A DNA stretch of 64,000 nucleotides from Acidobacteriota bacterium (GCA_033549365.1 JAWSUF010000002.1:286082-350081); one strand, 5' to 3'. Counted from the first letter of the stretch, positions 10,768 to 29,564 are shown. A program made the numbers and translations. The notes: generated by a model not told the origin, from the sequence alone.

Positions 10768-11925
10768 CTATTTCACCAGGGCGACGACCGTCTCGGCCGC
10801 CTCCTTCATTCCCGAAGCCCAGGAGAAGGTCAGCCCGGAATCCTTGAGGATTTTCTTGCCCAGATCGACGTTGGTGCCCTCGAGACGGATGACGATGGGG
10901 ATGTTCGTTCCCAGCTCCTTGGCCGCCTTGACGACGCCCGAGGCGATAAGATCGCAACGCACGATGCCGCCGAAAATGTTGATGAGGGCGCCTTTGACGT
11001 CAGGATCCGAGACCAGGATCTTGAAGGCGTTCGTCACCGCCTCCTCGGAAACGCCTCCGCCGACATCCAGGAAGTTGGCCGGCACGCCGCCGCTGTACTT
11101 GACGATGTCCATGGTGGCCATGGCCAGACCGGCGCCGTTGACCATGCAGCCGACATTGCCGTCGAGCTTGATGTAGTTGAGATCGTGCTTTGAGGCCTCG
11201 ACTTCGAGCGGCGATTCTTCGTCGAGATCGCGGAGTTCCCGGATCTCGGGATGACGGTAGAGCGCGTTGTCGTCGAAATTCATCTTGGCGTCGAGCGCCA
11301 GAACGTCGCCGTTCTTCGTGATGAGCAGGGGATTGATCTCGGCCAACGAAGCGTCGGTTCCCTCGAACGCCTTATAGAGAGCATCGATGAAGGCCACGGC
11401 CTGTTTGAAGGTTGAGCCTTTCAGGCCGAGCTTGAAGGCCAGGTTGCGGGCCTGGAAACCCAGAAGTCCCGTTCCCGGATGAATGAACTCCTTGATGATA
11501 AGCTCCGGAGTTTCGGCGGCGACTTTTTCGATCTCCATACCGCCTTCCGTCGATGCCATGATAACGGGCGCCTCCGTGGCCCGGTCGATGACGATACCCA
11601 GATAGAGTTCCCGATCGATGTCCAGTGCTTCCTCGACGAGAAGGCTCTTGACCTTCCTCCCCTCGGGTCCCGTCTGGGGCGTGACCAGCGTCATGCCGAT
11701 CATGTCCGCGGCCAGATTTGCGGCCTGTTCGGGTGTGTCGGCGATCTTGATTCCGCCGCCTTTGCCGCGCCCGCCGGCGTGGATCTGCGCCTTGAGGACG
11801 ACGCGGGAGCCGAGGCGTTGGGCGATCTCCTGAACCTGGTCCGGTTTCCCGGCGACTTCGCCGCGGGGGACGCGGACACCGTAGCGGGCCAGAATCTGCT
11901 TGGCTTGGAATTCGTGGATTTTCAT
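10768..11925 (-). CDS. sucC: Succinyl-CoA synthetase beta subunit (ATP-grasp)
   Basis: The true start is [17 protein letters not shown] at 11925, with a GGGAGGG RBS 7 nt upstream. The ligase-CoA C-terminus is [10 protein letters not shown]. Confidence 0.9.
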
Positions 11926-12029
11926 TTTTCCCTCCCGAAATTGCATCGCCGTCGGGCGGCGGGCTGTTTTTTTATAGCAAAGGCGCACGGGGGTGTCAAT
12001 GATTGAGACGTCTCGCATCTCCTCAAGTC

Positions 12030-12058
12030 TTGACACCCCAGAAAAAAGAGTCTATAGT
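12030..12058 (+). promoter_or_regulatory. Near-consensus sigma70 promoter upstream of the mvh/hdr block
   Basis: TTGACA (12030-12035), a 17-nt spacer, then TATAGT (12053-12058). It lies in the AT-rich divergent region between sucC and mvhG. Confidence 0.5.
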
Positions 12059-12285
12059 TTCGATCTCGCGGCTTCCGACCGGTTTCGGAAAAATTTTAAT
12101 TTTTTATGATGCATTCATTGCTAAAGCGGCGACACGGAATCTTAATCCCCCTCCCGTTTATCTTTTCCCGCTCCTTGTGCCCGTCGATGTCGTCCGTTCT
12201 GTCCCCCCGACCGCCGGATTCCGGTTCCCGGCGCTTGATCTTCAATGAAGGGAGAGGACTCCACACGAGTTCGAAAGGGTGAGTC

Positions 12286-13251
12286 ATGGCGAAACCGAAA
12301 TTTGCGATTTACTGGGCCGCGAGCTGCGGAGGATGCGAGATCGCCTTCCTCGACATCAAGGAGAAGATCCTGGATTTCGATGCCGCGGCGGAACTGGTGT
12401 TCTGCCCCTGCCTCATGGACACCAAGTACTCCGATGTCGAGGCCATGGCCGATGAGGAGATCGATGTCACGCTCTTCAACGGCGGGATCCGCAACGAGGA
12501 AAACCTTCATCTGGCCCATCTTCTGCGGCGGAAATCGAAGGTTCTGGTGGCGTTCGGCTCTTGTGCCACCGAAGGGTGCATCCCGGGTCTGGCCAACCTG
12601 ACGACGAAAGAGGACATCCTGGATTATGTCTATCGCCGATCTCCGTCGGTGGCTCCCGGAAATACCGTGCTTCCGCAACTGGAGACCGAAACGCCGTTCG
12701 GGAAGCTCACGCTTCCCGCCATCCACGAAAACCTGAGGACGCTCGGGCAGGTGGTGGATGTCGACTACTTCATGCCCGGCTGCCCGCCCGTCGAGGAGCA
12801 GATCTGGGCGGTGGCCGAGGCCGCTCTTTCGGGCAAGCTTCCGCCCAAGGGGTCGCTCGTCGGCGTCAACCCCAAAACGGTCTGCGATGAATGTCCCCGG
12901 ACGAAGGACGTCAAGAAGGTCAAAGCCTTTCGGCGGCCCCATCTTGTCTCACCCCGGGACATCGATCCCGAGATCTGTCTTCTGGAACAAGGCCTCCTGT
13001 GCAACGGCCCGGCCATCCACGCCGGCTGCGGCGCCCTCTGCCCCCGGGTCAACCTGGGTTGCCGCGGCTGCTACGGCCCGGCGGCCGGCATCCAGGATGT
13101 CGGGGCCAAACTGGCCGGCGCCATCGCCTCGGTCATCGACAGCGATGATCCGGCCGAAATCGACGGCATCGTCGACCAGATCCTCGATCCGGTCGGAACC
13201 TTTTACCGGTTCAACCTGGCCGGTTCGTTTGTGGGGAGACGCGTAAGATGA
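12286..13251 (+). CDS. mvhG: [NiFe]-hydrogenase small subunit, group 3 (Mvh/F420-non-reducing type)
   Basis: The N-terminus AIYWAASCGGCEIAFLD is the proximal-cluster motif. Several further Cys clusters follow (GSCATEGC, CPRTKD, CGALCP, CRGCYGP). It overlaps the large-subunit start. Confidence 0.8.
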   Translation: MAKPKFAIYWAASCGGCEIAFLDIKEKILDFDAAAELVFCPCLMDTKYSDVEAMADEEIDVTLFNGGIRNEENLHLAHLLRRKSKVLVAFGSCATEGCIPGLANLTTKEDILDYVYRRSPSVAPGNTVLPQLETETPFGKLTLPAIHENLRTLGQVVDVDYFMPGCPPVEEQIWAVAEAALSGKLPPKGSLVGVNPKTVCDECPRTKDVKKVKAFRRPHLVSPRDIDPEICLLEQGLLCNGPAIHAGCGALCPRVNLGCRGCYGPAAGIQDVGAKLAGAIASVIDSDDPAEIDGIVDQILDPVGTFYRFNLAGSFVGRRVR

Positions 13252-14702
13252 AAACCATCACCATCGATCCCATCACCCGGCTGGAGGGACACGGCAAGAT
13301 TTCCATATTCCTCGACGACGCCGGAAACGTCGCCGATGCCTATCTTCAGATCCCCGAGCTGCGCGGGTTCGAGCAGTTCTGCATCGGCCGTCCGGTCGAG
13401 GAAATGCCCCGTATTACGACACGGATCTGCGGCGTCTGTCCCGAAGCCCATATGATGGCGGCGGCCAAGGCCTGCGACGCCGTCTATCACTGCGAACTGC
13501 CCCGCACGGCCAAGCTGCTGCGGGAGCTTCTTTATGTCGTTTTTTACGTCACCGACCATTCGACGCACTTTTACGCCCTGGGCGGCCCGGACTTCGTCAT
13601 GGGGCCAACCGCACCCAAAGCCCAGCGCAACATCCTGGGCGTCATTCACAAGGTCGGCGTTGAAATCGGCAAGAAAGTCATCGGCATGCGGGGCGCCTGC
13701 CACAACATCATCAAGCAGATGGGCGGGAAGTCCGTTCATCCCATCGGCGCCATTCCCGGCGGCATGAGCAAGGGCATGACGAAGGAGGAGCAGGCGGCGA
13801 TTCTGGCCAAGGGGAAAGAGGCCGTCGAATTCGCCAAGTTCTCGATCGGTCTTTTCAACTCCCTGGTTCTCGAAAACAAGGAGTATGTCGATCTCATCCT
13901 GAGCGACAGCTTCACGCACCGGACTTACAACATGGGACTCGTCGACGCGAAAAACCGCGTCAACTTCTACGACGGAGACGTCCGCGTCACCGGCCCGGAC
14001 GGCGCCGAACTGGCCAAGTTCAAACCGGCCGATTACTTGAACCATATCGTCGAGCATGTCGAGACCTGGTCCTACCTCAAGTTCCCCTTCCTTAAGAACG
14101 TCGGCTGGAAGGGCTTGGTCGATGGGCCAGACAGCGGCATTTACAAAGCCACGCCCCTCTCCCGGCTGAATGTTTCCGATAGTATGGCCACGCCTCTGGC
14201 CAATGAAGAGCATGACAAGATGTACAAAACCCTGGGCGGGAAGCCGGTTCATCAAACTCTGGCCACGCATTGGGCTCGCCTGATCGAGCTTCTCTATGCG
14301 GCCGAGCGCTGGGTCGAACTCGCTTCCGACCCGGAGATCACGGGCCCCGAATACCGCATCGTTCCGGACAAGACCCCGGACGAGGGCGTTGCCGTGGTTG
14401 AGGCCCCGCGGGGAACGCTTTTTCATCACTATAAAACCGACGAAAAGGGCCTTCTTCGGGAAGCCAACCTCATTGTGGGAACGACCAACAACAACGGCGC
14501 CATCAACCTTTCCGTCAAGAAAGCGGCTCAGGGATTCATCAAAAACGGCCGGGTCGACGACGGGCTCCTGAACATCGTCGAAATGGCCTTCCGGGCCTAC
14601 GACCCCTGCTTCGGCTGCGCCACGCACGCCCTCGGCCGCACCCCGCTCCGGGTTTCCGTCCACGATCACCGGGGCGAGATCATCAAGGATTTGAGGAGAT
14701 AA
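13248..14702 (+). CDS. mvhA: [NiFe]-hydrogenase large subunit, group 3
   Basis: N-terminal RICGVCPEAH (RxCGxCxxxH) and C-terminal DPCFGCATH, followed by a roughly 20-aa extension of the type removed by the maturation protease. Confidence 0.85.
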   Translation: MKTITIDPITRLEGHGKISIFLDDAGNVADAYLQIPELRGFEQFCIGRPVEEMPRITTRICGVCPEAHMMAAAKACDAVYHCELPRTAKLLRELLYVVFYVTDHSTHFYALGGPDFVMGPTAPKAQRNILGVIHKVGVEIGKKVIGMRGACHNIIKQMGGKSVHPIGAIPGGMSKGMTKEEQAAILAKGKEAVEFAKFSIGLFNSLVLENKEYVDLILSDSFTHRTYNMGLVDAKNRVNFYDGDVRVTGPDGAELAKFKPADYLNHIVEHVETWSYLKFPFLKNVGWKGLVDGPDSGIYKATPLSRLNVSDSMATPLANEEHDKMYKTLGGKPVHQTLATHWARLIELLYAAERWVELASDPEITGPEYRIVPDKTPDEGVAVVEAPRGTLFHHYKTDEKGLLREANLIVGTTNNNGAINLSVKKAAQGFIKNGRVDDGLLNIVEMAFRAYDPCFGCATHALGRTPLRVSVHDHRGEIIKDLRR

Positions 14703-14710
14703 CACAGGCC

Positions 14711-16168
14711 ATGCGCGTTCTCGTTCTCAACAGCGGCAGTTCTTCGATCAAATTCCAGTTCATCGGCATGGAGGACGAGAGCCTTCTGGCCAAGGGGATT
14801 GTCGAAAAAATCGGCTCGAGCGATGCCATCATCACCTACCAGCCTTCGGGCCGGGACCGGATCCGGGAGATCCGCGAGGTGCAGAATCACGGCACGGCCA
14901 TCGAGATCGTTTTGGCCCTGCTTCTCCATCCCCAGCACGGGGTGATCAAGAACAAGAGTGAAATCGACGGCATCGGTCACCGGGTCGTTCACGGCGGCGA
15001 GGAGTTCGCCTCGTCCGTCTTGATCACGGACCGTGTGGCCGCCACCATCCGGAAGTGCATTCAATTCGCTCCTCTGCACAATCCCCACAACCTCAAGGGC
15101 ATCGAGGCCTGCGAGGCCCTCCTGCCCGGCGTCCCCCAGGTCGCCGTCTTCGACACGGCGTTTCACCAGACCATTCCGCCCAAAGGCTACATTTACGGTC
15201 TTCCCTATGCCTTGTACAAGAAGCTTGGTGTCCGGCGCTACGGTTTCCATGGGACATCCCACAGCTATGTGGCCCATCGGGCCGCGGAGATTCTGGGCAA
15301 GCCCATCGATAAAACGAAAATCATCACCTGCCATCTGGGCAACGGCGCCAGCATCACGGCGATCGACGGCGGCCGGTCCATCGATACGACCATGGGCTTT
15401 ACCCCCCTGGAAGGGCTGGTCATGGGCACCCGCTGCGGCTCCATCGATCCTGCGCTTGTCCCGTATATTATGGAACGGGAAAAGCTGGGGACCAAGGATA
15501 TCGACGCCATCATGAACAAAAACAGCGGCATGCTCGGCCTGACGGAAACATCCAACGACATGCGCGAGATCGAGCAGGAAGCCGCCCGCGGCAGCGAACG
15601 CCACCAATTGGCCATCGATATCTATTGCCAGAGCGTGAAGAAGTTCATCGGAGCTTATATGCTCGAATTGGGGCGTCTCGACGCCATCGTCTTCACGGGC
15701 GGCATCGGAGAGAATTCCCGCCTTGTGCGGCGGCTTGTTTGCGAAAATCTCGAAGCTTTCGGCATCGTTTGCGATGCCGATAAAAACGAGGCCAATGCCT
15801 CCGATATCAGTTCCGGCAAGGTCAAAATCCTGGTCATTCCGACCAATGAGGAGCTGGCCATCGCCCGGGATACGCGGGACATTTTGGGATCCGCGGAATA
15901 TCGCGAAGCCGCACAGGCCGCGCCACGCTCGGTCCCGGCGCCGGTCCCGGCGCCTTTCAAACCCGAAGAGACGGCCCGCCTTGTTCTGGCCTGGGCGCGA
16001 AATCCCAAGGCGGCACCCGATGACCTGGCCGCCCGCTTAAGCCGGGAATTCGGGCGGACGGTCGAACCCGCGGCCGTTCAGAAAGAGATCGGCCGTCTGG
16101 AACTTGCGTCACTGCCCGCCCCGGACCGCCGATCGGCCAAGCCCAAAAAAGGAAAATCACATGGATAA
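14711..16168 (+). CDS. ackA: Acetate kinase with an unusual Pro/Ala-rich C-terminal extension of about 85 aa
   Basis: N-terminal LVLNSGSSSIKFQ and the rest of the acetate/propionate kinase fold through about residue 400. The tail is ...PRSVPAPVPAPFKPEE...KPKKGKSHG. Confidence 0.85.
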   Translation: MRVLVLNSGSSSIKFQFIGMEDESLLAKGIVEKIGSSDAIITYQPSGRDRIREIREVQNHGTAIEIVLALLLHPQHGVIKNKSEIDGIGHRVVHGGEEFASSVLITDRVAATIRKCIQFAPLHNPHNLKGIEACEALLPGVPQVAVFDTAFHQTIPPKGYIYGLPYALYKKLGVRRYGFHGTSHSYVAHRAAEILGKPIDKTKIITCHLGNGASITAIDGGRSIDTTMGFTPLEGLVMGTRCGSIDPALVPYIMEREKLGTKDIDAIMNKNSGMLGLTETSNDMREIEQEAARGSERHQLAIDIYCQSVKKFIGAYMLELGRLDAIVFTGGIGENSRLVRRLVCENLEAFGIVCDADKNEANASDISSGKVKILVIPTNEELAIARDTRDILGSAEYREAAQAAPRSVPAPVPAPFKPEETARLVLAWARNPKAAPDDLAARLSREFGRTVEPAAVQKEIGRLELASLPAPDRRSAKPKKGKSHG

Positions 16169-16658
16169 GATCTCGAAAGAAGAATCGGGCTGGCTGGTCG
16201 CCCTGTCCTGGCTGAGCGCCCTGGAGGAGACGGCCCGGGATTTTCACGGGACGCGCCCCCGCGTTTTCTGCGAGCGCGTTTACGAACACTCCGTTCAGTT
16301 TTTCCTTCATCGCCTCGGTGACGAGTATGGTTTTGCGATCGAGAAAGCCGCCTCCATCCGGGAGGCCGTCGAAAACTACATCCGCATCGGAGTCTCGGCC
16401 GGAGTCTTCCGCGAGGGCGGAAGTTTCGAACTCAACGAGGTCAATCCTTATCACGTCGAAGTCACGGTCCATGACTGCGTCTACCTCAAGAGTTGCCAGG
16501 CGCTCATCGACGAAGGATTTTCCGTGAGAGACCTGACCTGTGCCCGGATCGGCTGTTTCCGAGCCGCGGTCAAGGCCCTCGGCAACCTCGACTGCGATTA
16601 CCAGGTGACCTCCTTCAACATCGAAGGCGCCTGCAAAGGTTATATCGAAAGGATTTGA
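16161..16658 (+). CDS. Hypothetical Cys-rich protein (possibly V4R/ATC-hydrolase-like)
   Basis: 165 aa from MDKISKEES. The C-terminal half carries DCVYLKSC, LTCARIGC, LDCDY and GACKG. It overlaps the ackA stop by 8 nt. I could not assign a family with confidence. Confidence 0.4.
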   Translation: MDKISKEESGWLVALSWLSALEETARDFHGTRPRVFCERVYEHSVQFFLHRLGDEYGFAIEKAASIREAVENYIRIGVSAGVFREGGSFELNEVNPYHVEVTVHDCVYLKSCQALIDEGFSVRDLTCARIGCFRAAVKALGNLDCDYQVTSFNIEGACKGYIERI

Positions 16659-16659
16659 T

Positions 16660-18498
16660 TTGACGAAAGACGGGTGTTCTTCGCTGGATACGGCGCTCCG
16701 CGTCCTGAACGAAAGCCGGGACGCCGCCGCCATCCGCTGTGCGGTCATCGATCTGGGCTACGAGAAGAGCGCTGAGGCCTACAAGATTCTGATCGAGCGT
16801 CTGGACGACCCCAACCCCGCCGTGCAGCACGCCGCCGTCGTTTCCCTCGGCCGCTCCGGCAGACCGGAGGCCGTAGAAGAACTGATCAAGCCCAAGATTT
16901 TCAGGTCGCCGTGGGCCAATATCCGCTGGGTCGCGGTGTCCGCGGTCGGCCGGCTGGGCGACCATCGGGTCATCGACCCCCTCATCAAGGCCGCGGAGGA
17001 TCCCGAATGGATCGTTCGAACCCAGGCCGTAGCCGAACTGATGGACAAGATCCGGGACATCATCGCCGCGAAAAACCTGAGACTGACCCGGCTGCTCATC
17101 AATATGTTTTATCTCGACAACAAAGAGATCGTCGACCTGGCCATTGAGGGTTTTGAAGACCTCGGTCTGGAGAGCCTGCCTTGCCTCCATGACGCGCTCT
17201 CGGCCTCTTCGGCCGCAATCCGGGCCAACGCGGCCCGGGCTCTGGGCCGCATCCGGTCCTCCCAGTCGACGCCTTATCTCATGGAGCTTCTCAAGGACGA
17301 CGATGCCCGGGTCCGTGCCGCGGCCGCCGAGGCGCTGGGCGTGATCGGCGACAAAATCGCGATCGAGGCCCTGGTCGGAAAAGTCCAGGACAACGTCGGT
17401 GTCGTTCGGGACAGCGCCGTCCAGGCTTTGGCTCGTGTCGGGAAACCGGCGACCATTCCGATTTTGAACGCCTTGACCCGGGAGAGAGACAAATTCGCCC
17501 AAACGGCCTATTTGAAAACTCTGGGCCTCATCCGCGACCCGAAATCCGCCCCGGCCCTGATCGGCTGTCTGCGCAGCAGCTATTTCATCGTCCGCCAGAC
17601 GGCGTTTTCCTCCCTCGTCCTCTTCGGTCCGTCCATTGCCAACCTCCTCATCCCGCTCCTCTCTTATAACAAATCCGACATCGACACACTCAAAAAAGAC
17701 GCCTGTTGCCGGGAACGTCCGGAACTCCAATTGCGGGCCGTCAAGGCGCTCGGCGGTTTGGAGGATCATCGGGTCGTCGCCCTGTTGAAAGACCTTGTCG
17801 AGGACAGTCTGCCCGATGTCCAGGAAGCGGTCGTTCACGCCCTCTTCCAAATCGGGTGCGCGGCCTGGGGACGTTGCACGGCTCTCAAAGTTCTGGCCGA
17901 GGTCGGCGATGCGTCCCTCGTGCCTCGTATCATCCCCTCTCTCAGGGACCATTCCGAGAATGTCCGGTTCGAGGCCGTGCGGGCCCTGACCCGCATGGGC
18001 GGTCCAGAGGCCGTCAATCATCTCATCCGTATGGCCCGGCGGGACAAGGCGGATTTCGTCCGCACGGAGTCCGTCCGGGGCCTGCGGCGGATCGGTCTGG
18101 GGCGGCCCGGTGTTCTGGATACGGCCCTGGCCGGACTCAATGATCCCTGTCGCGATGTCCGTTCTCACTCGGCCCGACTCCTGGGGAACTTTCACGACGA
18201 GCGGTCCATCCCGCCTCTTCTCAAAGCCATGGTCGATCCCCATTGGAGCGTCCGCCAAAGCGCGGAGATCGCGCTCTTGAATTTCGGCCGCAAAGCCGTA
18301 CCTCACCTTGTCGAGACATTGAAAAGTCGCTCCTGGTGGGCCCGTTTCCGGGCCGCCCGCCTTCTGGGAGAAAGCGGGGATTCCAGAGCCGAGAAACCCC
18401 TGAAGGGTTTGATCGCCCGGAAGGGAGAAAGGAATAGCGTTCGGGACATCGCCCGGGCCTCTCTTGCCAAACTGGAAAAAAAGGATAGCGCGTCATAA
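16660..18498 (+). CDS. HEAT-repeat (PBS-lyase-like) protein
   Basis: 612 aa made of repeated units of the A-x-x-ALG-x-IG/D-x-x-A-x-x-x-L type (e.g. AVVSLGRSG, AVSAVGRLGD, ARALGRIRS, AAEALGVIGD, AVQALARVG, AVRALTRMGG). Confidence 0.7.
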   Translation: MTKDGCSSLDTALRVLNESRDAAAIRCAVIDLGYEKSAEAYKILIERLDDPNPAVQHAAVVSLGRSGRPEAVEELIKPKIFRSPWANIRWVAVSAVGRLGDHRVIDPLIKAAEDPEWIVRTQAVAELMDKIRDIIAAKNLRLTRLLINMFYLDNKEIVDLAIEGFEDLGLESLPCLHDALSASSAAIRANAARALGRIRSSQSTPYLMELLKDDDARVRAAAAEALGVIGDKIAIEALVGKVQDNVGVVRDSAVQALARVGKPATIPILNALTRERDKFAQTAYLKTLGLIRDPKSAPALIGCLRSSYFIVRQTAFSSLVLFGPSIANLLIPLLSYNKSDIDTLKKDACCRERPELQLRAVKALGGLEDHRVVALLKDLVEDSLPDVQEAVVHALFQIGCAAWGRCTALKVLAEVGDASLVPRIIPSLRDHSENVRFEAVRALTRMGGPEAVNHLIRMARRDKADFVRTESVRGLRRIGLGRPGVLDTALAGLNDPCRDVRSHSARLLGNFHDERSIPPLLKAMVDPHWSVRQSAEIALLNFGRKAVPHLVETLKSRSWWARFRAARLLGESGDSRAEKPLKGLIARKGERNSVRDIARASLAKLEKKDSAS

Positions 18499-18557
18499 TT
18501 TTTTACGGACTTATAAGCTTTTATAGCTGGCGGTAATTCCAGTCGAGGAGAGAGGAC

Positions 18558-18965
18558 ATGAGAGTCAAGCTCAGGGCCGGGCCCGAACAGCGGAAGTTTA
18601 TCGAGAGAATCGAGGAGCTGTCCGGAGAGGACATCTTCGCCTGCTACCAGTGCGGCCGGTGTTCGGCAGGTTGTCCGGTGGCCCTCGAGATGGACATCCT
18701 GCCCAATCAGGTCATCCGGCTGATCCAGTTGGGCCTCGCCGAAGAGGTCCTCGGTTCGAAAACCCTGTTTCTCTGCGCATCCTGCTTCACGTGCCAGTCC
18801 CGCTGCCCCAAGGGCATCGATATGGCCCGGGTCATGGAAGCCGTCCGCCACCTGCTCGAACCGAAAGGGAAAGACGTCTGCGGTCCGGACGAGATTACCC
18901 CGGAGCTGGCCAAGGAACTGCCCCAACAGGTTCTTGTGTCTCTGTTCCGCAAATTCAGCAAATAA
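18558..18965 (+). CDS. hdrC: Heterodisulfide reductase subunit C-like (2x[4Fe-4S])
   Basis: CYQCGRCSAGCP and CASCFTCQSRCP motifs. Confidence 0.8.
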   Translation: MRVKLRAGPEQRKFIERIEELSGEDIFACYQCGRCSAGCPVALEMDILPNQVIRLIQLGLAEEVLGSKTLFLCASCFTCQSRCPKGIDMARVMEAVRHLLEPKGKDVCGPDEITPELAKELPQQVLVSLFRKFSK

Positions 18966-18968
18966 GGT

Positions 18969-19910
18969 GTGCCCATGATGAAGATCCATTACTACCCCGG
19001 ATGCACGCTGAAGGAAAAAACGACGAATCTGGATCTGTCCACCCGCGAGGCCATGAAGCGCCTGGATGTCGAACTTGTCGAGCCCGACGGCTGGGCCTGC
19101 TGCGGGGCGGAATATCCGCTGACCGAGGAAAAAATCTCGGGATTGGCCGCGCCGGTGCGCGTCCTGCGCCAGGTTCGGGACGAAGGGGGCGAGCTCGTCG
19201 TCACGACCTGTTCCTTCTGCTATGCCGTCCTGAAACGGGCCAACAAGGCCATGATCGAGGACCCCTTGAAAAACAGGAGGATCAACGCCTATCTCAAGGA
19301 TGACATCAAGATCGATCCCCTGACCAAAACGAAAACGACGGGATTCGAGGACTACAAGGGGGAGGTCAAAGTCCTCCATCTCCTTGAATATATCAAGGAC
19401 GAGGTCACTTATCCAAGGCTCCGGTCCCGAATCAAGCGCGATCTCGCCGGACTGCCCATCGCCGCGTATTATGGCTGCCGGCTGCTCCGTCCCCAGGAGG
19501 ATATGAGTTGGGGTGAGCCGGACGAGCCCCGCTTTTTCGAGGAATTCCTGGAAGCCGTGGGCTGCCGGGCCGTCGACTATCCCTTCAAACAGGAGTGCTG
19601 CGGATCCTATCTTTCGGTGTCCATGCCGGACGCTGCATCCGACGCCTCCTACCGGGTTCTCAGGTCGGCCGGCCTCAACGGCGCCGCCGCGGCCACCGTG
19701 ACCTGCCCCCTCTGCTTCTACAATCTGGATCGTCGCCAGGAAAAAATCCGGGAAATGTTTCCCGACTTCCCGGGCCTGCCGGTGGTCTTTTTCACGCAGA
19801 TTCTGGCCTGGGCCCTGGGCGTCGACCGGGATGTTCTGGGGCTGGACCAGCATGCCGTTCCCGCCGGTCATCTGTTTGCCGATGACCGCCCAGCCGAGGT
19901 GAGGACATGA
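18969..19910 (+). CDS. hdrB: Heterodisulfide reductase subunit B-like (two CCG domains)
   Basis: YYPGCTLKEK...WACCGAEYP and YYGCRLLRP...CCGSY. Confidence 0.85.
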   Translation: MPMMKIHYYPGCTLKEKTTNLDLSTREAMKRLDVELVEPDGWACCGAEYPLTEEKISGLAAPVRVLRQVRDEGGELVVTTCSFCYAVLKRANKAMIEDPLKNRRINAYLKDDIKIDPLTKTKTTGFEDYKGEVKVLHLLEYIKDEVTYPRLRSRIKRDLAGLPIAAYYGCRLLRPQEDMSWGEPDEPRFFEEFLEAVGCRAVDYPFKQECCGSYLSVSMPDAASDASYRVLRSAGLNGAAAATVTCPLCFYNLDRRQEKIREMFPDFPGLPVVFFTQILAWALGVDRDVLGLDQHAVPAGHLFADDRPAEVRT

Positions 19911-21886
19911 CAAAGAAGAAGACGAAACCGACGGATAAGCGCATCGGGCTGTTCGTCTGCCACTGCGGCGTCAACATCGCCGGCGTGGTGGACGTCGAAA
20001 AAGTGGCCGAGGTCATGAAGGATTACCCGGGGGTGAACTTCTCGGCCGACTACATCTACATGTGCTCCGACCCCGGGCAGCAGATGATCATCGACACGAT
20101 CAAAGAGAAGAAACTCGACAGCATCATCATCGCCGCCTGTTCGCCGACGCTGCACGAAAAAACATTCCAGGAGGCGGCCCGCCTGGCCGGTCTCAATCCC
20201 TACCAGATCGAAATCGCCAACATCCGCGAACAGAACAGTTGGGTCCACAGCGACAAGGACTGGGCGACCCGGAAAGCCGTCAAGATCTGCAAGGCGCATG
20301 TCGAGAAGGCCCTTCTCAATGAGAGCCTCGAACCTATCCGCGTGGACGTCTCCAGAAAAGCCCTGGTCATCGGCGGCGGCGTCTCCGGCCTGCAGGCCGC
20401 GCTCGACATCGCCGACCACGGCTACGAAGTCCTCCTGGTCGAAAAGAATCCCTCGATCGGGGGGAAAATGATCCAGCTTTCGGAAACGTTCCCCACGCTG
20501 GACTGCTCCCAGTGCATCATGACTCCGAAGATGGTCGAGGCGCATCGCCATCCGAATATCCGCATCCTGACCTATCACGAAGTGGATTCCATCTCCGGGT
20601 TCGTCGGCAATTTCAAGGTCCGGATCAAGAAGAAACCGCGTTACGTCGATGAAGACCTGTGCAATCTTTGCGGTGAATGCGAAAAGGTCTGTCCGCAGGT
20701 CGTTCCGGACGAGTTCAACATGGGGTTGTCGTTCCGCAAAGCCATCTATATGCCCTTTCCCCAGGCCGTGCCCGGAACCTACACTCTGGACGAGGCCAAC
20801 TGCCTCGGCCTGAATCCCGTCCGTTGCGGCAAGTGCAAGGATGTCTGCGACGTCCACGCCATCGATTTCGACATGAAAGAGGAAATCATCGAGGAAGAGA
20901 TCGGGGCCATTGTCGTGGCCACGGGCTACGACCTTTACACGATGCAGGCCCTGGGCGAATTCGGAGGCGAGAAATACGACGACGTCATCAACGGTCTTGA
21001 GTTCGAACGGATCCTCTCCGCCTCGGGTCCGACGGGCGGTGTCATCCGCCGGCCGTCGGACGGCAAGGTCCCCAAGTCCATCGTCTTTGTTCAGTGCAGC
21101 GGATCGAGGGATACCGAAAAACACCTGCCCTATTGCTCCAAGATCTGCTGCATGTATACGGCCAAGCACGCCATGCTCTACAAGCACCGCGTCCCGGACG
21201 GGCAGGCGACGGTCTTCTACATCGACGTCCGGACGGGCGGCAAGGCTTTCGATGAGTTCTACCAGAGGACGGTCGAGGAGGACAAGGTCCTCTACATTCG
21301 AGGCAAGGTCTCCAAGATCTTCAAAGAAGGGGACAAGGTCATCGTTTGGGGCGTCGACACTTTGAGCGGCCGGAAGGTCGAGGTCGAGGCCGACATGGTC
21401 GTCCTGGCCATGGCCATGGTCAAGGCCGACGGCGTGGGGGATCTCCTGAAGAAGCTCAAGATTTCGACCGATATTCACGGTTTCCTGGCTGAAGCCCATG
21501 CCAAACTGAGGCCCGTCGAAAGTCTAAATGCCGGTTTCTACCTGGCCGGCTGCGCCCACGGGCCCAAGGACATCCCCGAAGCGGTCTCCCAGGCTTCGGC
21601 CGCGGCGGCCAAGGTCGGGGATCTCTTCGCCCAGAAGGAACTTCTCCATGAGCCGACCATCGTGCCGGTCGACGACGACCTGTGCTCCGGCTGCGGCATC
21701 TGCGTTACGATGTGCCCCTATCAGGCCCGCACCCTGGACCGCGAACGCGGCGTCGTTGTGGTCAACGAGATTCTCTGCGAGGGTTGCGGCGCCTGCGCCG
21801 CGGCCTGCCCGGCCGGCGCCGCCCAGCAGAGAAACCAGACGGACGACCAGATCTTCGCGATGGTCACCGCCATGATGAAAGGATGA
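19907..21886 (+). CDS. hdrA: Heterodisulfide reductase subunit A-like FAD/Fe-S bifurcating flavoprotein
   Basis: The N-terminus IGLFVCHCGVNIAG is a HdrA hallmark. FAD site ALVIGGGVSGLQAALD. It carries several 4Fe-4S motifs, including the C-terminal CSGCGICVTMCP and CEGCGACAAACP. Confidence 0.9.
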   Translation: MTKKKTKPTDKRIGLFVCHCGVNIAGVVDVEKVAEVMKDYPGVNFSADYIYMCSDPGQQMIIDTIKEKKLDSIIIAACSPTLHEKTFQEAARLAGLNPYQIEIANIREQNSWVHSDKDWATRKAVKICKAHVEKALLNESLEPIRVDVSRKALVIGGGVSGLQAALDIADHGYEVLLVEKNPSIGGKMIQLSETFPTLDCSQCIMTPKMVEAHRHPNIRILTYHEVDSISGFVGNFKVRIKKKPRYVDEDLCNLCGECEKVCPQVVPDEFNMGLSFRKAIYMPFPQAVPGTYTLDEANCLGLNPVRCGKCKDVCDVHAIDFDMKEEIIEEEIGAIVVATGYDLYTMQALGEFGGEKYDDVINGLEFERILSASGPTGGVIRRPSDGKVPKSIVFVQCSGSRDTEKHLPYCSKICCMYTAKHAMLYKHRVPDGQATVFYIDVRTGGKAFDEFYQRTVEEDKVLYIRGKVSKIFKEGDKVIVWGVDTLSGRKVEVEADMVVLAMAMVKADGVGDLLKKLKISTDIHGFLAEAHAKLRPVESLNAGFYLAGCAHGPKDIPEAVSQASAAAAKVGDLFAQKELLHEPTIVPVDDDLCSGCGICVTMCPYQARTLDRERGVVVVNEILCEGCGACAAACPAGAAQQRNQTDDQIFAMVTAMMKG

Positions 21887-22326
21887 CCATGTTCGAGCCT
21901 CAAATCATGTCGTTTCTCTGCAAATGGTGCACGAGCGCGGCGGCCGACCTGGCCGGGACATCCCGGATCGAGCACGCGCCCAACGCCGTCTCGATGCGGG
22001 TCATGTGCTCGAGCCGGGTGGACCCGCAGCACATTCTCTACGCGTTCCGGGAAGGCGCCGACGGCGTCTTTCTCGGCGGGTGTCATCCGGGCGACTGCCA
22101 TTATGTCGAGGGCAACTACAAGACCCTCCGGCGGATCGCCCTTCTCAAGCGGATGATGAAGGACCTGGGTATCGATCCCCGCCGGCTCCGGCTGGAATGG
22201 ATTTCCGCCGCGGAAGGCCGGAAATACGCCCAGGTCATGGACGAATTCACCGAGCAGATCCGGGCCTTGGGCCCGTTGCGTTTGAACGAAAACGCCTTAT
22301 TGAGAGAGGTCGAGCACGATGAGTAA
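21883..22326 (+). CDS. mvhD: MvhD-like [2Fe-2S] electron-transfer subunit linking hydrogenase to HdrA
   Basis: MTMFEPQIMSFLCKWCTS...MRVMCSSRV...LGGCHPGDCHY. Its ATGA overlaps the hdrA stop. The longer track ORF from 21682 is upstream read-through. Confidence 0.85.
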   Translation: MTMFEPQIMSFLCKWCTSAAADLAGTSRIEHAPNAVSMRVMCSSRVDPQHILYAFREGADGVFLGGCHPGDCHYVEGNYKTLRRIALLKRMMKDLGIDPRRLRLEWISAAEGRKYAQVMDEFTEQIRALGPLRLNENALLREVEHDE

Positions 22327-23101
22327 AACCGAAAGCAAAACCAAGAAGGCCGTGTCCCGCACCAAGAAAAAGGAAGCGGGGAAAGTTCCCATCTTCGTCA
22401 TGGGCAAACGGTACGACGTCCCCGACTCCCTGACCATTCAGAAAGCCCTCGAATATGCGGGCTATCAACTGGTCCGGGGCTGCGGCTGCCGGGGAGGAAT
22501 CTGCGGCGCCTGCGGCACGGTCTACCGCTTCCCCGACTCCTACCGGGTCGAAGTCGGACTGGCCTGCCAGACCGTCGTTCAGCCGGACATGTACATCGCC
22601 CAGATTCCCTTTTTCCCGGGAAACAAGGCGGTCTACGACATCGAAACCCTCGATCCTACGGGGGCGACGGTGGCCGCTCTTTATCCGGAAATCTTCAAGT
22701 GCGTCGGCTGCGGCACCTGCACGCGAAGCTGTCCCATGGACATCGACGTTCTGAACTACGTCTCCAAAGCCATTCAGGGAGACATTGCGGCCGTGGCCGA
22801 GGGCTCCTTCGACTGCGTCATGTGCGGGCTGTGCGCGGCGCGCTGTCCGGCCGAAGAAGTCCAGTACAACTTCGCCATCCTGGCCCGCCGTCTTTACGCC
22901 CGCCACCTGGCACCGAAGGCCGTGCATCTGGTCCAGGCCGTGGCCAATGTCGAAAACGGAAAATATGACCAGGCCCTGGAGGAACTCAAGAAATTGAGCA
23001 CCGAGGACCTGGCGAAAATTTACAAGAGTCTCGAACACGAACCCGACATGGCGGACGAGGACTGGACGCCGAAGGAAAAGGTCCAGATCTATGAAGATTG
23101 A
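22319..23101 (+). CDS. Succinate dehydrogenase/fumarate reductase-type iron-sulfur subunit (SdhB/FrdB-like), with no membrane anchor nearby
   Basis: The 2Fe-2S pattern CGCRGGICGACG, then CVGCGTCTRSCP and CVMCGLCAARCP. Confidence 0.8.
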   Translation: MSKTESKTKKAVSRTKKKEAGKVPIFVMGKRYDVPDSLTIQKALEYAGYQLVRGCGCRGGICGACGTVYRFPDSYRVEVGLACQTVVQPDMYIAQIPFFPGNKAVYDIETLDPTGATVAALYPEIFKCVGCGTCTRSCPMDIDVLNYVSKAIQGDIAAVAEGSFDCVMCGLCAARCPAEEVQYNFAILARRLYARHLAPKAVHLVQAVANVENGKYDQALEELKKLSTEDLAKIYKSLEHEPDMADEDWTPKEKVQIYED

Positions 23102-23135
23102 CATGACGGGCGACGATCAGAAGGGAGGGTGACCC

Positions 23136-24809
23136 ATGCCGTACACACCGGAATTGAACGAACTCATCAAGAAGGTCGAGAAAACGCGGCCGGCCCGCGT
23201 GGAGAAGAAGCGCAAGGGCGAGGAATTCCCCGCCATGTCGCTTCAGGAGCGGAAGGATATCCTCAAGTTCCATCCCGACTTCAAGGAAGAAGGGCGGTCC
23301 GAAATCAAGGTCGGGCCCAACACAGGCTACCGGATCGCCAACGAGATGGTCAGCCTCATCCATGCCAAAAGCCGGCTGGATCCGGATGCCGTCGATCTCA
23401 ACAAGGTCGACTTCGAAACCGATGTCCTGGTCGTCGGCGGCGGCGGTGCGGGCGCTTCGGCGGCTCTTCTGGCGCGGGAAAACGGGGCGAAGGTCCTTAT
23501 CGCCACCAAGCTTCGGTTGGGCGATGCCAACACCATGATGGCCGAAGGCGGAATCCAGGCCGCCACGAAATATCGAAAGGATTCGCCCTATTACCATTAT
23601 CTCGACGCCATGGGCGGCGGCCATTTCAAGAACGACCCCGACCTCGTCAAAACCCTGGTTCTCGAGGCGCCCAAGGTCATGGCCTGGCTGGAAAAGCAGG
23701 GCACGATGTTCTCGAAATTCGACGACGGGTTGCTCAAGGCCATGCACGGCGGCGGAACGTCCCGCAAGAGGATGCATTACGCCGGCGACATCACCGGCGC
23801 CGAGATCATGCGGACGCTTCGCGACGAGGTCAAAAACCATCCCGAAGACATCGATGTTCTCGAGTTCACGACGGCCGTGGAACTCCTCCTCGACGAAAAC
23901 GGAGCCTGCGCCGGCGCCGTTCTCTACAATCTGGAAACCGAAGAGTACTTCATCGTCCGGGCCAAGGCGACCATCCTGGCCACGGGAGGATCGGGCCGCC
24001 TGCACATCCAGGACTTCATGACCACCAACCACTACGGCGCGACGGGCGACGGCCTGATTCTCGGATACCGGGCCGGCGTTCCGCTTCGGTTCCTGCATAC
24101 GGTCCAGTACCACCCGACAGGCGCCGTGTTCCCCGAACAGGCCGAAGGGCTTCTCATCACCGAAAAATTCCGCGGCGCCGGGGCCAATGTGTTGAACGTC
24201 GACGGCGAGCAGTTCGTCTTCGAGCGCGAGCCCCGCGATGTCGAATCATCGGCGATCATCCGGGAATGCCTTGAACGGGGGAAGGGCGTGCCGACGCCAA
24301 CCGGCAAATTCGGCGTCTGGCTCGACTCGCCCATGATCGACATCCTCCAGGGCGAGGGCACGGTCCGCAAGGAATTCCCGGGCAAGTGGATCCTCTTCAA
24401 GCGCTACGGCATCGACATCACCAAGGAACCCATGCTCATCTACCCCACGCTGCATTATCAGAACGGAGGGCTTGAAATCAAGCCCAATTCCGAAACCCGG
24501 GTGCCGGGGCTCTACGCCGCCGGCGAGGTGAGCGGCGGCATCCACGGAGAAAACCGCCTGATGGGCAACTCTCTCCTTGATGTCGTGGTTTTCGGCCGCA
24601 TCGCCGGCTGCGCCGCGGCCGATTATGTGAAAACCAGGGCCGAGGCCGGCCAGCCGACGCTCGATCACGTCCGGGCCTATCACAAAGCCCTGGAAGAGGC
24701 GGGGATCTCCGTGGACAACCGCGTGGCGCCCATGATTCTTCCCGATTATTCCAATCCCGAGGTCCGGAAAAAACAGCTAACGACGGCCTATCACGGGACG
24801 TTGCGCTGA
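23136..24809 (+). CDS. Fumarate reductase/succinate dehydrogenase flavoprotein-like FAD enzyme (FrdA/TfrA-like) with an N-terminal extension of about 95 aa
   Basis: The Rossmann motif VLVVGGGGAGASAAL starts only at about residue 97. The C-terminal GLYAAGEVSGGIHGENRLMGNSL is the FRD/SDH flavoprotein active-site region. Confidence 0.8.
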   Translation: MPYTPELNELIKKVEKTRPARVEKKRKGEEFPAMSLQERKDILKFHPDFKEEGRSEIKVGPNTGYRIANEMVSLIHAKSRLDPDAVDLNKVDFETDVLVVGGGGAGASAALLARENGAKVLIATKLRLGDANTMMAEGGIQAATKYRKDSPYYHYLDAMGGGHFKNDPDLVKTLVLEAPKVMAWLEKQGTMFSKFDDGLLKAMHGGGTSRKRMHYAGDITGAEIMRTLRDEVKNHPEDIDVLEFTTAVELLLDENGACAGAVLYNLETEEYFIVRAKATILATGGSGRLHIQDFMTTNHYGATGDGLILGYRAGVPLRFLHTVQYHPTGAVFPEQAEGLLITEKFRGAGANVLNVDGEQFVFEREPRDVESSAIIRECLERGKGVPTPTGKFGVWLDSPMIDILQGEGTVRKEFPGKWILFKRYGIDITKEPMLIYPTLHYQNGGLEIKPNSETRVPGLYAAGEVSGGIHGENRLMGNSLLDVVVFGRIAGCAAADYVKTRAEAGQPTLDHVRAYHKALEEAGISVDNRVAPMILPDYSNPEVRKKQLTTAYHGTLR

Positions 24810-24831
24810 TCCCAACAAGCGAGGTGCGTCC

Positions 24832-25110
24832 ATGCCGGTGAGACACAGAGAAAAGCCGTTCGGGCTCCCTAAGCCCGAAACTCCCCATGGTGAGATCGTC
24901 ATCCTGGATGACCGGTGCAAGGGCTGTGCCTTCTGCATCGAATACTGCCCGCATGATGTGCTGGTGATATCCAAGAGGTTTAACATCAAGGGCTACCACC
25001 CCCCGGAAGTCGAAAAAGCCGAACTGTGCATCAACTGCGGTTTCTGCCGCATGATCTGCCCGGAGTTCGCCATTTACACCTATGAATCCACCACCGGGGA
25101 GAAACCATGA
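24832..25110 (+). CDS. korD: 2-oxoacid:ferredoxin oxidoreductase delta subunit (2x[4Fe-4S])
   Basis: CKGCAFCIEYCP and CINCGFCRMICP. Confidence 0.8.
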   Translation: MPVRHREKPFGLPKPETPHGEIVILDDRCKGCAFCIEYCPHDVLVISKRFNIKGYHPPEVEKAELCINCGFCRMICPEFAIYTYESTTGEKP

Positions 25111-25137
25111 ACGGAATCCAAGGAAAGGTGACGTCCC

Positions 25138-26307
25138 GTGAAAGCTGATCCCAAAGGGGTTTTAACAGGAGCCCATTACATGGACGGCGACCACGCCTGC
25201 TGCGAGGGCGCGCTGGCGGCCGGCTGCCGGTTTGTGGCCGGCTATCCGATCACGCCCTCCACCGAAGTCGTGGAGCGCTTCTCCCGCCGAGCGCCGATGG
25301 TGCCTGGAGCCTTTTTCATCCAGATGGAAGACGAACTGGCGGCATCCATCACGCTTCAAGGGGCCGTTTGGGCAGGCAAGAAAGCTATGACCGTGACCAG
25401 CGGGCCGGGGTTCTCGCTGATGATGGAACATATCGGTTTGGCGGTCATGGCCGAGGTCCCCTGCGTCTTTGTCAATGTCCAACGCGGCGGTCCCTCCACG
25501 GGGCTGCCGACCCTCCCCGGCCAGGCCGACATGATGCAGGCCCGCTGGGGCTCGCACGGCGACTACGAAATCATCGCCATCTGCCCCAACTCTCCCCAGG
25601 AGTGTTTCGACCTGACCATCGACGCTTTCAATCTCGCGGAACAGTACCGCGTCCCGGTCATGTTCATGATGGATGAATGCGTCGGACACATGATGGAACG
25701 GGTTATCATCCCGGAAGCCGACACGATCGAGATCACGCCCCGCCGATACACCAAACTTCCCCCCGGTGAATATCTGCCCTACAAACCCGGCGAGGATCTC
25801 GTGCCCGAAATGTTCAAGGCCGGAGACGGCTATCGTCTGCATATCACCGGGCTGACGCACGACTACAAGGGGTATCCCGTGATGTCGGCCGATATCCAGG
25901 AGCAACTGGTCCGGCGACTGGTCGACAAGATCCGGCTCAATGCCCCCAAGATCTGGCGCTATGAGGAAACCGCCGTTGAGGACGCCGAAGTCGTCGTCAT
26001 CGCCTACGGCATCACCTCGCGCGTGGCCGTCGAAGCCGTGGCCATGGCCCGGAAGGAGGGCATCAAGGTCGGCATGCTGCGGCTCATCGTCGTCTGGCCC
26101 TTCCCGGAGGATCGAATCTTCGAACTGGCCTCCCAGGGGAAGGGGCTGGTCGTGGCCGAGATGAATTACGGGCAGGTCTTTTACGAGGTCGATCGCTGTG
26201 CCCGCGGCCGGGCCCCGGTCGTTCTGGCCGGGCACGGCGGCGGAACCGTGCACAACGTCGAAGCCATTGTGGAAAAAATCAGGGAGGCGCACAAATGTCG
26301 GTCTTAA
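25138..26307 (+). CDS. korA: 2-oxoglutarate/2-oxoacid:ferredoxin oxidoreductase alpha subunit
   Basis: 389 aa with the AGYPITPSTE N-terminal signature of KorA/PorA. Confidence 0.85.
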   Translation: MKADPKGVLTGAHYMDGDHACCEGALAAGCRFVAGYPITPSTEVVERFSRRAPMVPGAFFIQMEDELAASITLQGAVWAGKKAMTVTSGPGFSLMMEHIGLAVMAEVPCVFVNVQRGGPSTGLPTLPGQADMMQARWGSHGDYEIIAICPNSPQECFDLTIDAFNLAEQYRVPVMFMMDECVGHMMERVIIPEADTIEITPRRYTKLPPGEYLPYKPGEDLVPEMFKAGDGYRLHITGLTHDYKGYPVMSADIQEQLVRRLVDKIRLNAPKIWRYEETAVEDAEVVVIAYGITSRVAVEAVAMARKEGIKVGMLRLIVVWPFPEDRIFELASQGKGLVVAEMNYGQVFYEVDRCARGRAPVVLAGHGGGTVHNVEAIVEKIREAHKCRS

Positions 26308-27744: not shown

Positions 27745-27879
27745 CCCGGATTCGGTAAACCGAAAGAGCTTTGTGGACAACGCTGGAATCCCCCCGGTGA
27801 TCCGGGCGGGACATCCGGCCTCCCGGGGGTCCGAATGATTGGGAATTCTCCCGGGGGAGGCAACATATTGCAGGAGGGA

Positions 27880-29553: not shown

Positions 29554-29564
29554 ATGACCCTTCG

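Follow-up and report, generated by a model that had tools for sequence, protein, structure and literature searches.

What do hydrogenase-linked Hdr modules reduce in bacteria that have no heterodisulfide? Group 3c [NiFe] hydrogenases, like HdrABC-MvhD modules, abound among non-methanogenic bacteria of sediments, aquifers and digesters, organisms that lack CoM-S-S-CoB, the mixed disulfide of coenzymes M and B; to our knowledge, CoM/CoB chemistry is not to be expected in a bacterial host. The question is raised by an operon in a 64,000-nucleotide stretch from an Acidobacteriota bacterium (GCA_033549365.1 JAWSUF010000002.1:286082-350081; the whole stretch is hereafter the window), in which genes for an [NiFe] hydrogenase, HdrABC and MvhD share a strand with genes for a fumarate reductase-like Fe-S subunit and flavoprotein (FrdB and FrdA). 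We lean towards reading this operon as a soluble fumarate reductase that runs on H2 and is assembled on an Mvh/Hdr electron-bifurcation scaffold, in which ferredoxin would also be reduced. More tentatively, fumarate may be the direct high-potential acceptor within a single MvhAG-MvhD-HdrABC-FrdBA supercomplex, with the CCG clusters serving as a relay and no thiol taking part.

Subunits of the predicted complex

Eight genes would supply the complex:

12286 to 13251, plus strand: hydS, [NiFe] hydrogenase small subunit, MvhG/VhuG-like (Pfam Oxidored_q6, E 4e-24)
13248 to 14702, plus strand: hydL, [NiFe] hydrogenase large subunit, MvhA/VhuA-like, probably of group 3c type (Pfam NiFeSe_Hases)
18558 to 18965, plus strand: hdrC, HdrC-like di-[4Fe-4S] protein (Pfam Fer4_17/Fer4_8)
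18969 to 19910, plus strand: hdrB, HdrB-like CCG-domain protein (two Pfam CCG domains)
19907 to 21886, plus strand: hdrA, full-length bifurcating-type flavoprotein (NCBIfam HdrA2, 808 bits)
21889 to 22326, plus strand: mvhD, [2Fe-2S] connector protein of 145 amino acids (Pfam FlpD, E 2e-50)
22319 to 23101, plus strand: frdB, FrdB-like Fe-S subunit with a [2Fe-2S] site, two four-Cys cubane sites and a conserved C-terminal tail
23136 to 24809, plus strand: frdA, FrdA/TfrA-like flavoprotein (Pfam FAD_binding_2, E 1.4e-79, from residue 96)

Pfam and NCBIfam matches and sequence motifs thus place the hyd, hdr, mvhD and frd genes where an earlier note on this DNA had put them. The Hdr and MvhD parts of an Mvh/Hdr bifurcating complex are represented, namely a full-length HdrA, an HdrB with two CCG domains, an HdrC with two [4Fe-4S] sites, and MvhD, and judged by these sequences the bifurcation module is intact. 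HdrA aligned over its full length (residues 4-657, 691 bits) with the structurally characterised methanogen HdrA (8rvu_a/5odc_A). HdrB, in which both CX(n)CCGX(n)CXXC motifs are complete, aligned over its full length with methanogen HdrB (PDB 8rvu_b, E 2e-34); its NCBIfam scores were 145 bits for HdrB and 133 bits for SdhE (SdhE cut-off 500), making it equally like the SdhE subunit of type E enzymes. HdrC scored 69 bits against the NCBIfam HdrC model and carries two CxxCxxCxxxC cubane motifs. The mvhD ATG lies 2 bp past the hdrA stop, and independent gene calls in an Aminicenantes relative (locus L085) also give a 145-residue gene. A candidate open reading frame (ORF) for MvhD at 21924-22322 had no Pfam match and was rejected; the true gene lies in the frame of 21682-22326, starting at the ATG at 21889.

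The hydrogenase subunits may be of the Mvh/Vhu type (group 3c). The best NCBIfam matches were VhuG for hydS (about 210 bits, under the curated cut-off of 450) and VhuA for hydL (408 bits, under the cut-off of 800), and hydL carries the RICGVC and DPCFGC motifs. Its matches in PDB were equally close to MvhA (5odc_F, E 5e-117) and to 7t2r_D, the large subunit of a further [NiFe] hydrogenase (E 1e-117).

To characterize the FrdBA pair, we collected relatives from one genome per species. At least 596 stretches encode an FrdBA relative; all window proteins were compared by tblastn with 80 retained loci, and tallies were made on those 64 that had 4.5 kb or more of upstream sequence. The invariant cysteines of the Fe-S subunit comprise C57/62/65/83, with the spacing of an SdhB-type [2Fe-2S] site, C128/131/134/138 and C166/169/172/176, the latter two each being a complete CxxCxxCxxxCP motif, and the last of them a four-Cys site and not the three-Cys site of a [3Fe-4S] cluster. 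Aligned as a family by hhalign, the subunit matched E. coli FrdB with 93.8% probability (E 1.8e-7, 141 columns), collinear over the three cluster sites, and matched E. coli SdhB poorly (10.8% probability). When PDB sequences were searched with the subunit, directly or by profile, generic ferredoxins prevailed among the matches, SdhB/FrdB appearing only at E ~1e-5, and the NCBIfam dhsB model (TIGR00384) was missed (27 bits vs a cut-off of 88). In-frame stops in two FrdB homologues, considered as possible selenocysteine codons, proved to be genuine TAA/TAG ends where the alignment had overrun the gene end. The subunit also extends about 75 residues past the cluster domains (residues 185-260, nucleotides 22871-23101). 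Across 36 sequences from many phyla, R190, R191, H203, Y235, E241, W249 and P251 of this tail are invariant, and nothing in the aligned portion of E. coli FrdB corresponds to it; the tail may serve in docking.

The flavoprotein was aligned with 75 family members and with E. coli FrdA, SdhA and NadB. H326, T342, E343, R346, R367, H440 and R474, which correspond to the E. coli FrdA catalytic residues H232, T244, E245, R248, R287, H355 and R390, are invariant in all 75 members. The histidine that binds flavin adenine dinucleotide (FAD) covalently in E. coli FrdA (H44) is replaced in all 75 by an asparagine (N132). The AlphaFold model (pTM 0.78, mean pLDDT 69.7, with low-confidence loops around the FAD/substrate site) is of moderate quality and therefore serves for fold assignment alone; its top Foldseek matches were SdhA (7d6v_A) and E. 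coli FrdA, at TM ~0.59, with NadB at rank 34. From the residues, the fold and the hhalign match of FrdB, we take the pair to be a divergent member of the FrdAB type, soluble, with FAD bound non-covalently and four cysteines at its third cluster, and its assignment to the fumarate/succinate type is well supported by these comparisons.

Could the pair act on another substrate, for example as L-aspartate oxidase or another FAD_binding_2 enzyme? The flavoprotein is about 34% identical to each of E. coli FrdA, SdhA and NadB, and it missed every curated NCBIfam cut-off, including that of its best match, TfrA (359 bits vs 718), and that of nadB (TIGR00551, 284 bits vs 452.75). It is also unusual at both ends: the N-terminal extension of about 95 residues has no Pfam match, and about 83 residues follow R474, in which no Succ_DH_flav_C domain was detected up to E 10. 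Against these points stand the invariant catalytic residues and the position of Glu121 (E. coli numbering), which we take to be the marker residue of NadB and which is Gly in 67 of the 75 members and never Glu. An FrdB-like gene adjoins frdA in 62 of the 64 loci, and fumarase, SucCD and Kor genes are neighbours in separate lineages. We therefore rejected L-aspartate oxidase on the grounds of the replaced Glu121, the obligatory FrdB-like partner and the tricarboxylic acid (TCA) cycle gene context, and we regard any other substrate as very improbable. The earlier note had set such an orthology against its own proposal; residues, Foldseek and hhalign agree that the pair is of the FrdA/SdhA type and not NadB.

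Operon layout and proposed electron flow

How far does the unit extend? The earlier note had ended it with frdA at 24809. Its genes are all present, and the unit continues downstream to the korDABG and fumarase genes, with sucDC divergent upstream. The additional features are:

9870 to 10742, minus strand: sucD, succinyl-CoA synthetase (Pfam CoA_binding and Ligase_CoA)
10768 to 12036, minus strand: sucC, succinyl-CoA synthetase (Pfam ATP-grasp_2 and Ligase_CoA)
12030 to 12058, plus strand: promoter-like site TTGACA-17-TATAGT in the region between the divergent genes sucC and hydS
14711 to 16168, plus strand: ackA, acetate kinase (Pfam Acetate_kinase, E 1e-152, residues 3-386 of 485)
about 16161 to 16658, plus strand: small Cys-rich ORF, 165 residues from its ATG, no Pfam match
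16660 to 18498, plus strand: HEAT/PBS-lyase-repeat protein of 612 residues (Pfam HEAT_2, E 1e-83)
24832 to 27744, plus strand: korD-korA-korB-korG, four-subunit 2-oxoacid:ferredoxin oxidoreductase (Pfam Fer4_7, POR_N/PFOR_II, TPP_enzyme_C and POR)
27835 to 29496, plus strand: class I (Fe-S) fumarate hydratase (Pfam Fumerase and Fumerase_C), closing the chain of plus-strand genes

The window has a G+C content of about 60%, because of which spurious ORFs are frequent, and genes were picked by domain content and codon-position G+C. From hydS to fumarase (12286-29496, about 17 kb) the chain of plus-strand genes is unbroken, with -13 to +90 bp between called genes, and the strand switches to minus beyond 29496. 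The sucCD genes lie just upstream and diverge from hydS. The promoter-like site between them, a consensus match only, agrees with 11 of the 12 consensus positions and is the sole strong plus-strand site within 11500-31000. A terminator scan returned 18 sites vs a chance expectation of 20.5, none of them in the intergenic gaps of the chain; it is uninformative beyond revealing no obvious break. With a single upstream promoter-like site and terminator-free gaps, the sequence gives no sign of separate hdr and frd transcripts, and on this layout the region is predicted to be one long operon. A crude hydropathy scan found no multi-span protein anywhere in the chain and detected five to six segments in each of the downstream ABC permeases that served as positive control, which upholds the view that no membrane anchor is encoded here.

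Two details of the gene order had been described differently. The overlap between mvhD and frdB (22319-22326) is real, spans 8 bp and recurs in the independent gene calls of the relative L085; to call the modules genetically fused overstates it, as these are operonic genes with a translational overlap, and mvhGA lies three genes away from hdr. The order given as mvhG-mvhA ... hdrC is correct, with the ellipsis concealing ackA, the small Cys-rich ORF and the HEAT-repeat gene. These three occupy the same position in the Aminicenantes relatives (L002-L006, L022, L085). AckA has a C-terminal extension of about 95 residues with no Pfam match. The small ORF, mechanically called from a TTG at 16104 (184 residues), is 69-75% identical in the relatives and is called as a 165-residue gene in L085. 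The nearest relatives, with 84-86% identity, are metagenome-assembled genomes (MAGs) of Ca. Aminicenantes, and the carrier is most likely an uncultured anaerobe of this group.

From these genes we infer a physical complex, H2 as donor, ferredoxin bifurcation, direct wiring without a thiol, and a physiological direction. The MvhA/G-type [NiFe] hydrogenase would oxidise H2, and MvhD would hand the electrons to the HdrA flavin. In the high-potential branch, they would pass through HdrC/HdrB, here dedicated to Frd, to the [2Fe-2S] and two [4Fe-4S] clusters of FrdB and on to the non-covalent FAD of FrdA, where fumarate would be reduced to succinate; in the low-potential branch, ferredoxin would be reduced. 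Fumarase would provide the fumarate, SucCD would convert succinate to succinyl-CoA, and Kor, using reduced ferredoxin, would carboxylate succinyl-CoA to 2-oxoglutarate. The Kor alpha subunit scored 551 bits against the NCBIfam 2-oxoacid:acceptor oxidoreductase model, over its cut-off of 411. With fumarase, SucCD and Kor beside Frd, one operon would thus give both carbon and low-potential electrons for a reductive TCA branch, and the full reductive cycle would be served if ATP-citrate lyase were encoded elsewhere.

The energetics of this direction were calculated from potentials of -414 mV for H2, about -500 mV for ferredoxin and +30 mV for fumarate/succinate (E0'; PMC3570798). By our own calculation, the reaction 2 H2 + fumarate + Fd(ox) -> succinate + Fd(red) yields about -69 kJ/mol under standard conditions, and the H2-consuming direction still yields about -12 kJ/mol at 1 Pa H2. 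The confurcating direction, which the earlier note had offered as a syntrophic alternative, is accordingly unfavourable at standard potentials unless H2 drops to about 0.1 Pa or less. In such a scheme, succinate oxidation would be pulled by Kor-derived reduced ferredoxin to form H2, and the pathway would run from glutamate or succinate to acetate, explaining ackA. It draws support from the conserved place of ackA within the operon, from the reversibility of Kor, SucCD and fumarase, and from the occurrence of relatives in syntrophic Desulfobacterota. However, the mean donor potential would be about -235 mV (succinate +30 mV, ferredoxin about -500 mV), so that H2 formation needs that same low pressure, and neither ackA nor kor is present in the stand-alone eight-gene units described below. 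Moreover, the FrdABEF enzyme of Syntrophobacter fumaroxidans is induced by fumarate and not by syntrophic succinate oxidation. Taking both sides together, we consider a reverse physiological direction decidedly unlikely.

Related loci and competing explanations

If fumarate is what the Hdr module reduces, is the linkage of their genes kept elsewhere? Among the retained loci we found four architectures. Type I has the order hdrC-hdrB-hdrA-mvhD-frdB-frdA. In Aminicenantes it is preceded by hydSL-ackA-ORF-HEAT and followed by korDABG-fum, in agreement with the independent gene calls of L085; in Fermentibacteria, Aegiribacteria and KSB1-type loci, hydS-hydL lies immediately downstream of frdA. Type II, from Desulfobacterota, has the order hdrA-hdrC-hdrB-HdrL-mvhD-[Fe-S protein]-frdB-frdA-sucCD. 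Type III consists of hdrC-hdrB-frdB-frdA only and occurs in many phyla, including Syntrophobacteraceae. In Type IV, from Desulfomonilaceae, frdBA lies beside Fe-S proteins, a multihaem cytochrome c, a membrane protein of the NrfD type and a molybdopterin oxidoreductase.

Several loci deserve a closer description. Type II was seen in L008, L009, L012-L016, L019, L023, L027 and L068; in L013 (4510-9147) the HdrL-like protein has 1003 residues and the Fe-S protein 395, and sucCD directly follows frdA. Its composition is similar to that of the S. fumaroxidans HdrABC/HdrL cluster, and the enzyme may thus exist here in a form driven by NAD(P)H. The Type IV example L040 (6080-16367) has the frdBA pair without HdrBC, and this architecture suggests a membrane- or quinone-linked version. 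In a Fermentibacteraceae MAG (L031), the eight genes hdrCBA-mvhD-frdBA-hydSL stand alone amid unrelated genes, with TCA genes absent nearby. A CbiM/CbiQ/ABC-ATPase transporter is encoded convergently to this unit (L031, 14304-16631, minus strand); this CbiMQO-type transporter may supply nickel to the hydrogenase. In a Dehalococcoidales locus (L025, 5945-8996), the HdrA homologue between hdrB and frdB was matched by tblastn in two segments, 5945-7282 and 8016-8996, a split that might be explained by a frameshift, by an insertion or by a selenocysteine codon.

In numbers, hdrB and hdrC lie upstream of the pair in 37 of the 64 loci, HdrA within 10 kb in 24, and HdrA between hdrB and frdB in 14. 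A hydrogenase is present in ten loci, each of them with HdrA placed between hdrB and frdB. The mvh/hdr gene set of Fermentibacteria and KSB1 has frdBA nested inside it. The TCA context recurs independently, with kor and fumarase in Aminicenantes and with sucCD after frdA in Desulfobacterota. Conservation of the gene order, proposed by the earlier note as a check, was found in related and unrelated phyla alike (tblastn, the L085 gene calls, L031 and the 64-locus tally). Across these genomes, the linkage is conserved despite rearrangement and is under selection; FrdBA usually has dedicated HdrCB-like partners and is repeatedly joined by HdrA/MvhD together with one of two further modules, a hydrogenase of group 3c type or HdrL.

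The same tallies bear on another explanation, in which the genes are co-regulated without forming a complex and share an operon for no other reason than their common service in the reductive TCA branch: HdrCB-FrdBA would be self-contained with a donor of its own, and Mvh-HdrA-MvhD would only feed ferredoxin to Kor. In 23 of the 37 module-bearing loci the four-gene HdrCB-FrdBA module occurs without HdrA or hydrogenase, and the Desulfomonilaceae pair lies beside cytochromes and NrfD. Yet no high-potential outlet is known for an HdrA that lacks an HdrBC of its own, and in the window hdrA-mvhD sits between hdrB and frdB, with junctions that overlap or measure 2 bp. The nesting of frdBA in the mvh/hdr set also persists at loci without nearby TCA genes. 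We consider co-regulation without a complex quite unlikely.

The main rival keeps the Hdr and Frd activities apart and joins them by a diffusible thiol. Mvh-HdrABC would reduce a heterodisulfide or DsrC-like protein together with ferredoxin, and a separate thiol:fumarate reductase, made up of FrdBA and a CCG protein, would reoxidise the thiols and reduce fumarate, a model implied in PMC8542988 and one option in PMC11636981. Among NCBIfam models the flavoprotein matches TfrA best, the hdrC-hdrB-frdB-frdA module has the domains of TfrAB plus HdrC, and HdrB retains the disulfide-reducing site of methanogens, with both CCG motifs complete. However, the operon holds only one HdrB/HdrC set, and a thiol both made and consumed at the same CCG site would be caught in a futile loop. 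No thiol-carrier gene was found in the operon by Pfam, and the TfrA/TfrB equivalog cut-offs were missed widely. In a neighbour-joining tree with a single outgroup and without support values, the window HdrB clusters with the Frd-associated HdrB of Type III loci (41% identity); it is 30% identical to methanogen HdrB and 29% to HdrB of the Type II, HdrL-containing clusters. Because the single HdrBC set is of the Frd-associated type, we disfavour the thiol loop and judge it unlikely.

Several points weigh against a bifurcating H2:fumarate complex, in addition to the intact disulfide-reducing site of HdrB and the limits of the HdrB tree. Both the complex and bifurcation are argued from gene linkage alone, and as most family members lack HdrA and hydrogenase, bifurcation is not intrinsic to FrdBA. 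The ackA gene, the small ORF and the HEAT-repeat gene part the hydrogenase from hdr and have no place in the model. For the reductive TCA branch, the 2-oxoglutarate-specific NCBIfam models of Kor scored under their cut-offs, and a search within the window for ATP-citrate lyase and other genes specific to the reductive cycle found none.

Surrounding genes and known systems

The remainder of the window holds genes of other kinds, some of which may connect with the operon. About 7 kb downstream, a minus-strand pair (36325-42249) encodes a Glu_synthase-domain protein of 525 residues adjoining a 1213-residue fusion of a NuoF-like part (Complex1_51K, NADH_4Fe-4S) and a GltD-like part (Fer4_20, Pyr_redox_2); the pair may be a glutamate synthase of an unusual kind, linked to NADH, which would consume the 2-oxoglutarate of the operon. 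At the opposite end, the minus strand encodes a NuoF-like protein that runs off the window (1-2296), a PHP-domain protein (2747-3685), an [FeFe]-hydrogenase-like protein with a PF04060 Fe-S domain (3819-5114), and, adjoining sucDC, a Cache/HAMP sensor kinase (7253-9268) and a response regulator (9265-9648). The genes of positions 1-9648 could be a unit that senses H2 or redox state and regulates the operon accordingly. Between 32000 and 36300, G+C falls to 0.52-0.55, and a D12-class N6-adenine methyltransferase (34291-35424) is followed by a DpnII-like restriction endonuclease (35425-36273); this region is probably an acquired restriction-modification island.

What would the operon mean for bacterial Hdr modules at large? 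Together with its relatives, it points to fumarate as one of their acceptors. If this is true, fumarate reduction would pay for reduced ferredoxin made from H2, which would make ferredoxin-dependent carboxylation in a reductive TCA branch cheaper and offer fermenters an energy-conserving electron sink. FrdBA would then be a "plug-in", present in at least 596 stretches from many anaerobic phyla and driven by Mvh with H2, by HdrL or Flx with NAD(P)H, or by cytochrome/quinone modules. Bacterial systems of group 3c hydrogenase and Hdr, the role of which, according to Dong et al. (2019), "remains unresolved" (PMC6472368), would also gain a named physiological acceptor.

The idea has close precedents. 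In Ca. Celaenobacter (Cloacimonadota), Williams et al. (2021) described an Mvh-Hdr-TFR-OGOR cluster with fumarate hydratase and succinyl-CoA synthetase and read it as an H2-driven reductive TCA cycle (PMC8542988). Compared by description, its reported composition is the same as that of the window, the hydrogenase there being a group 3c [NiFe] Mvh. The Aminicenantes operon comes from another phylum and adds ackA, the Cys-rich ORF and the HEAT protein; in addition, the Ca. Celaenobacter paper implies a heterodisulfide intermediate and not direct wiring.

Two further systems differ in their electron input. In tubeworm symbionts and Thioflavicoccus mobilis, korABCD and tfrAB are interspersed with flxABCD-hdrABC, and Rubin-Blum et al. 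(2019) proposed that electrons are passed straight to Tfr as well as to OGOR within one complex (PMC6315080); for the tubeworm-symbiont cluster, a 2024 study added co-expression evidence (PMC11636981). Like the window, these clusters combine an Hdr module, a soluble Tfr-like reductase and a four-subunit OGOR; unlike it, they belong to Gammaproteobacteria and take NADH through FlxABCD, whereas the window would use H2 through Mvh. Similarly, the "succinate operon" of Pseudoclostridium thermosuccinogenes, a fermentative Firmicute with NADH as donor via Flx, combines fumarase, as in the window, with Flx-Hdr and a two-gene fumarate reductase; electron bifurcation by this reductase was proposed to couple succinate formation to ferredoxin reduction, and limiting CO2 raised the expression about 4-fold (PMC7282089, citing Koendjbiharie & van Kranenburg 2019). 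In the operon genes of the window, Pfam detected no Flx-type NAD(H)-binding domain, the 184-residue ORF, the C-terminal extension of AckA and the N-terminal extension of the flavoprotein giving no match of any kind, and the [NiFe] hydrogenase would be the input module.

Type E enzymes are thought to be peripherally attached to the membrane, and the operon shows type E traits in its CCG-containing, SdhE-like subunit and in the four-Cys third site of its FrdB-like protein. Such enzymes are related to heterodisulfide reductases (Plugge genome paper). The FrdABEF enzyme of S. fumaroxidans (Sfum_4092-4095) is a type E fumarate reductase without a membrane subunit, which is 11-45-fold up in fumarate-grown cells (PMC8691401) and by inference gives the reading of the window an anchor in experiment. 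In the order of its genes and in their product names it agrees with the Type III hdrC-hdrB-frdB-frdA of Syntrophobacteraceae MAGs, a likeness of composition only, which also tempers the reading of the window as a bifurcating enzyme; a search with the L079 flavoprotein brought up no named S. fumaroxidans sequence. The CCG protein FrdE resembles the HdrB-like protein, and FrdF probably corresponds to the HdrC-like one; the enzyme comes without HdrA, MvhD or a hydrogenase.

Methanogens keep Hdr and Tfr as two distinct enzymes, joined via CoM-SH and CoB-SH. Homologues of HdrA, HdrB, HdrC, MvhD, MvhA and MvhG of the methanogen MvhAGD-HdrABC complex are full length here, with intact motifs. The methanogen TfrB, which unites an FrdB-like and a CCG part in one polypeptide, is split over two genes here, with hdrC in addition; the TfrB model accordingly scored 34.6 bits with the Fe-S protein and 29.4 bits with HdrB vs a cut-off of 385. 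For a terminal reductase that does not act on a heterodisulfide, Moorella thermoacetica reportedly offers a parallel: Mock et al. are said to have described there, in 2014, a MetFV-HdrABC-MvhD methylene-tetrahydrofolate (methylene-THF) reductase. As in the window, HdrABC-MvhD is operonic with the terminal module, which in Moorella is MetFV, without an attached hydrogenase, and here FrdBA. A preprint further reports that, in STRING, HdrA is linked with succinate dehydrogenase in Zixibacteria, Syntrophaceae and Firmicutes.

The novelty implied by the earlier note therefore does not stand, as the cluster composition and a near-identical idea were already given in PMC8542988, PMC6315080, PMC7282089 and PMC11636981. 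The composition and the concept of an H2- or NADH-driven Hdr-fumarate reductase are known, and the operon adds an Aminicenantes case. Beyond these systems, the related loci reveal a dedicated HdrCB-FrdBA core, interchangeable electron-input modules, and a stand-alone eight-gene unit in Fermentibacteria and KSB1 that provides a clean target for expression and assay.

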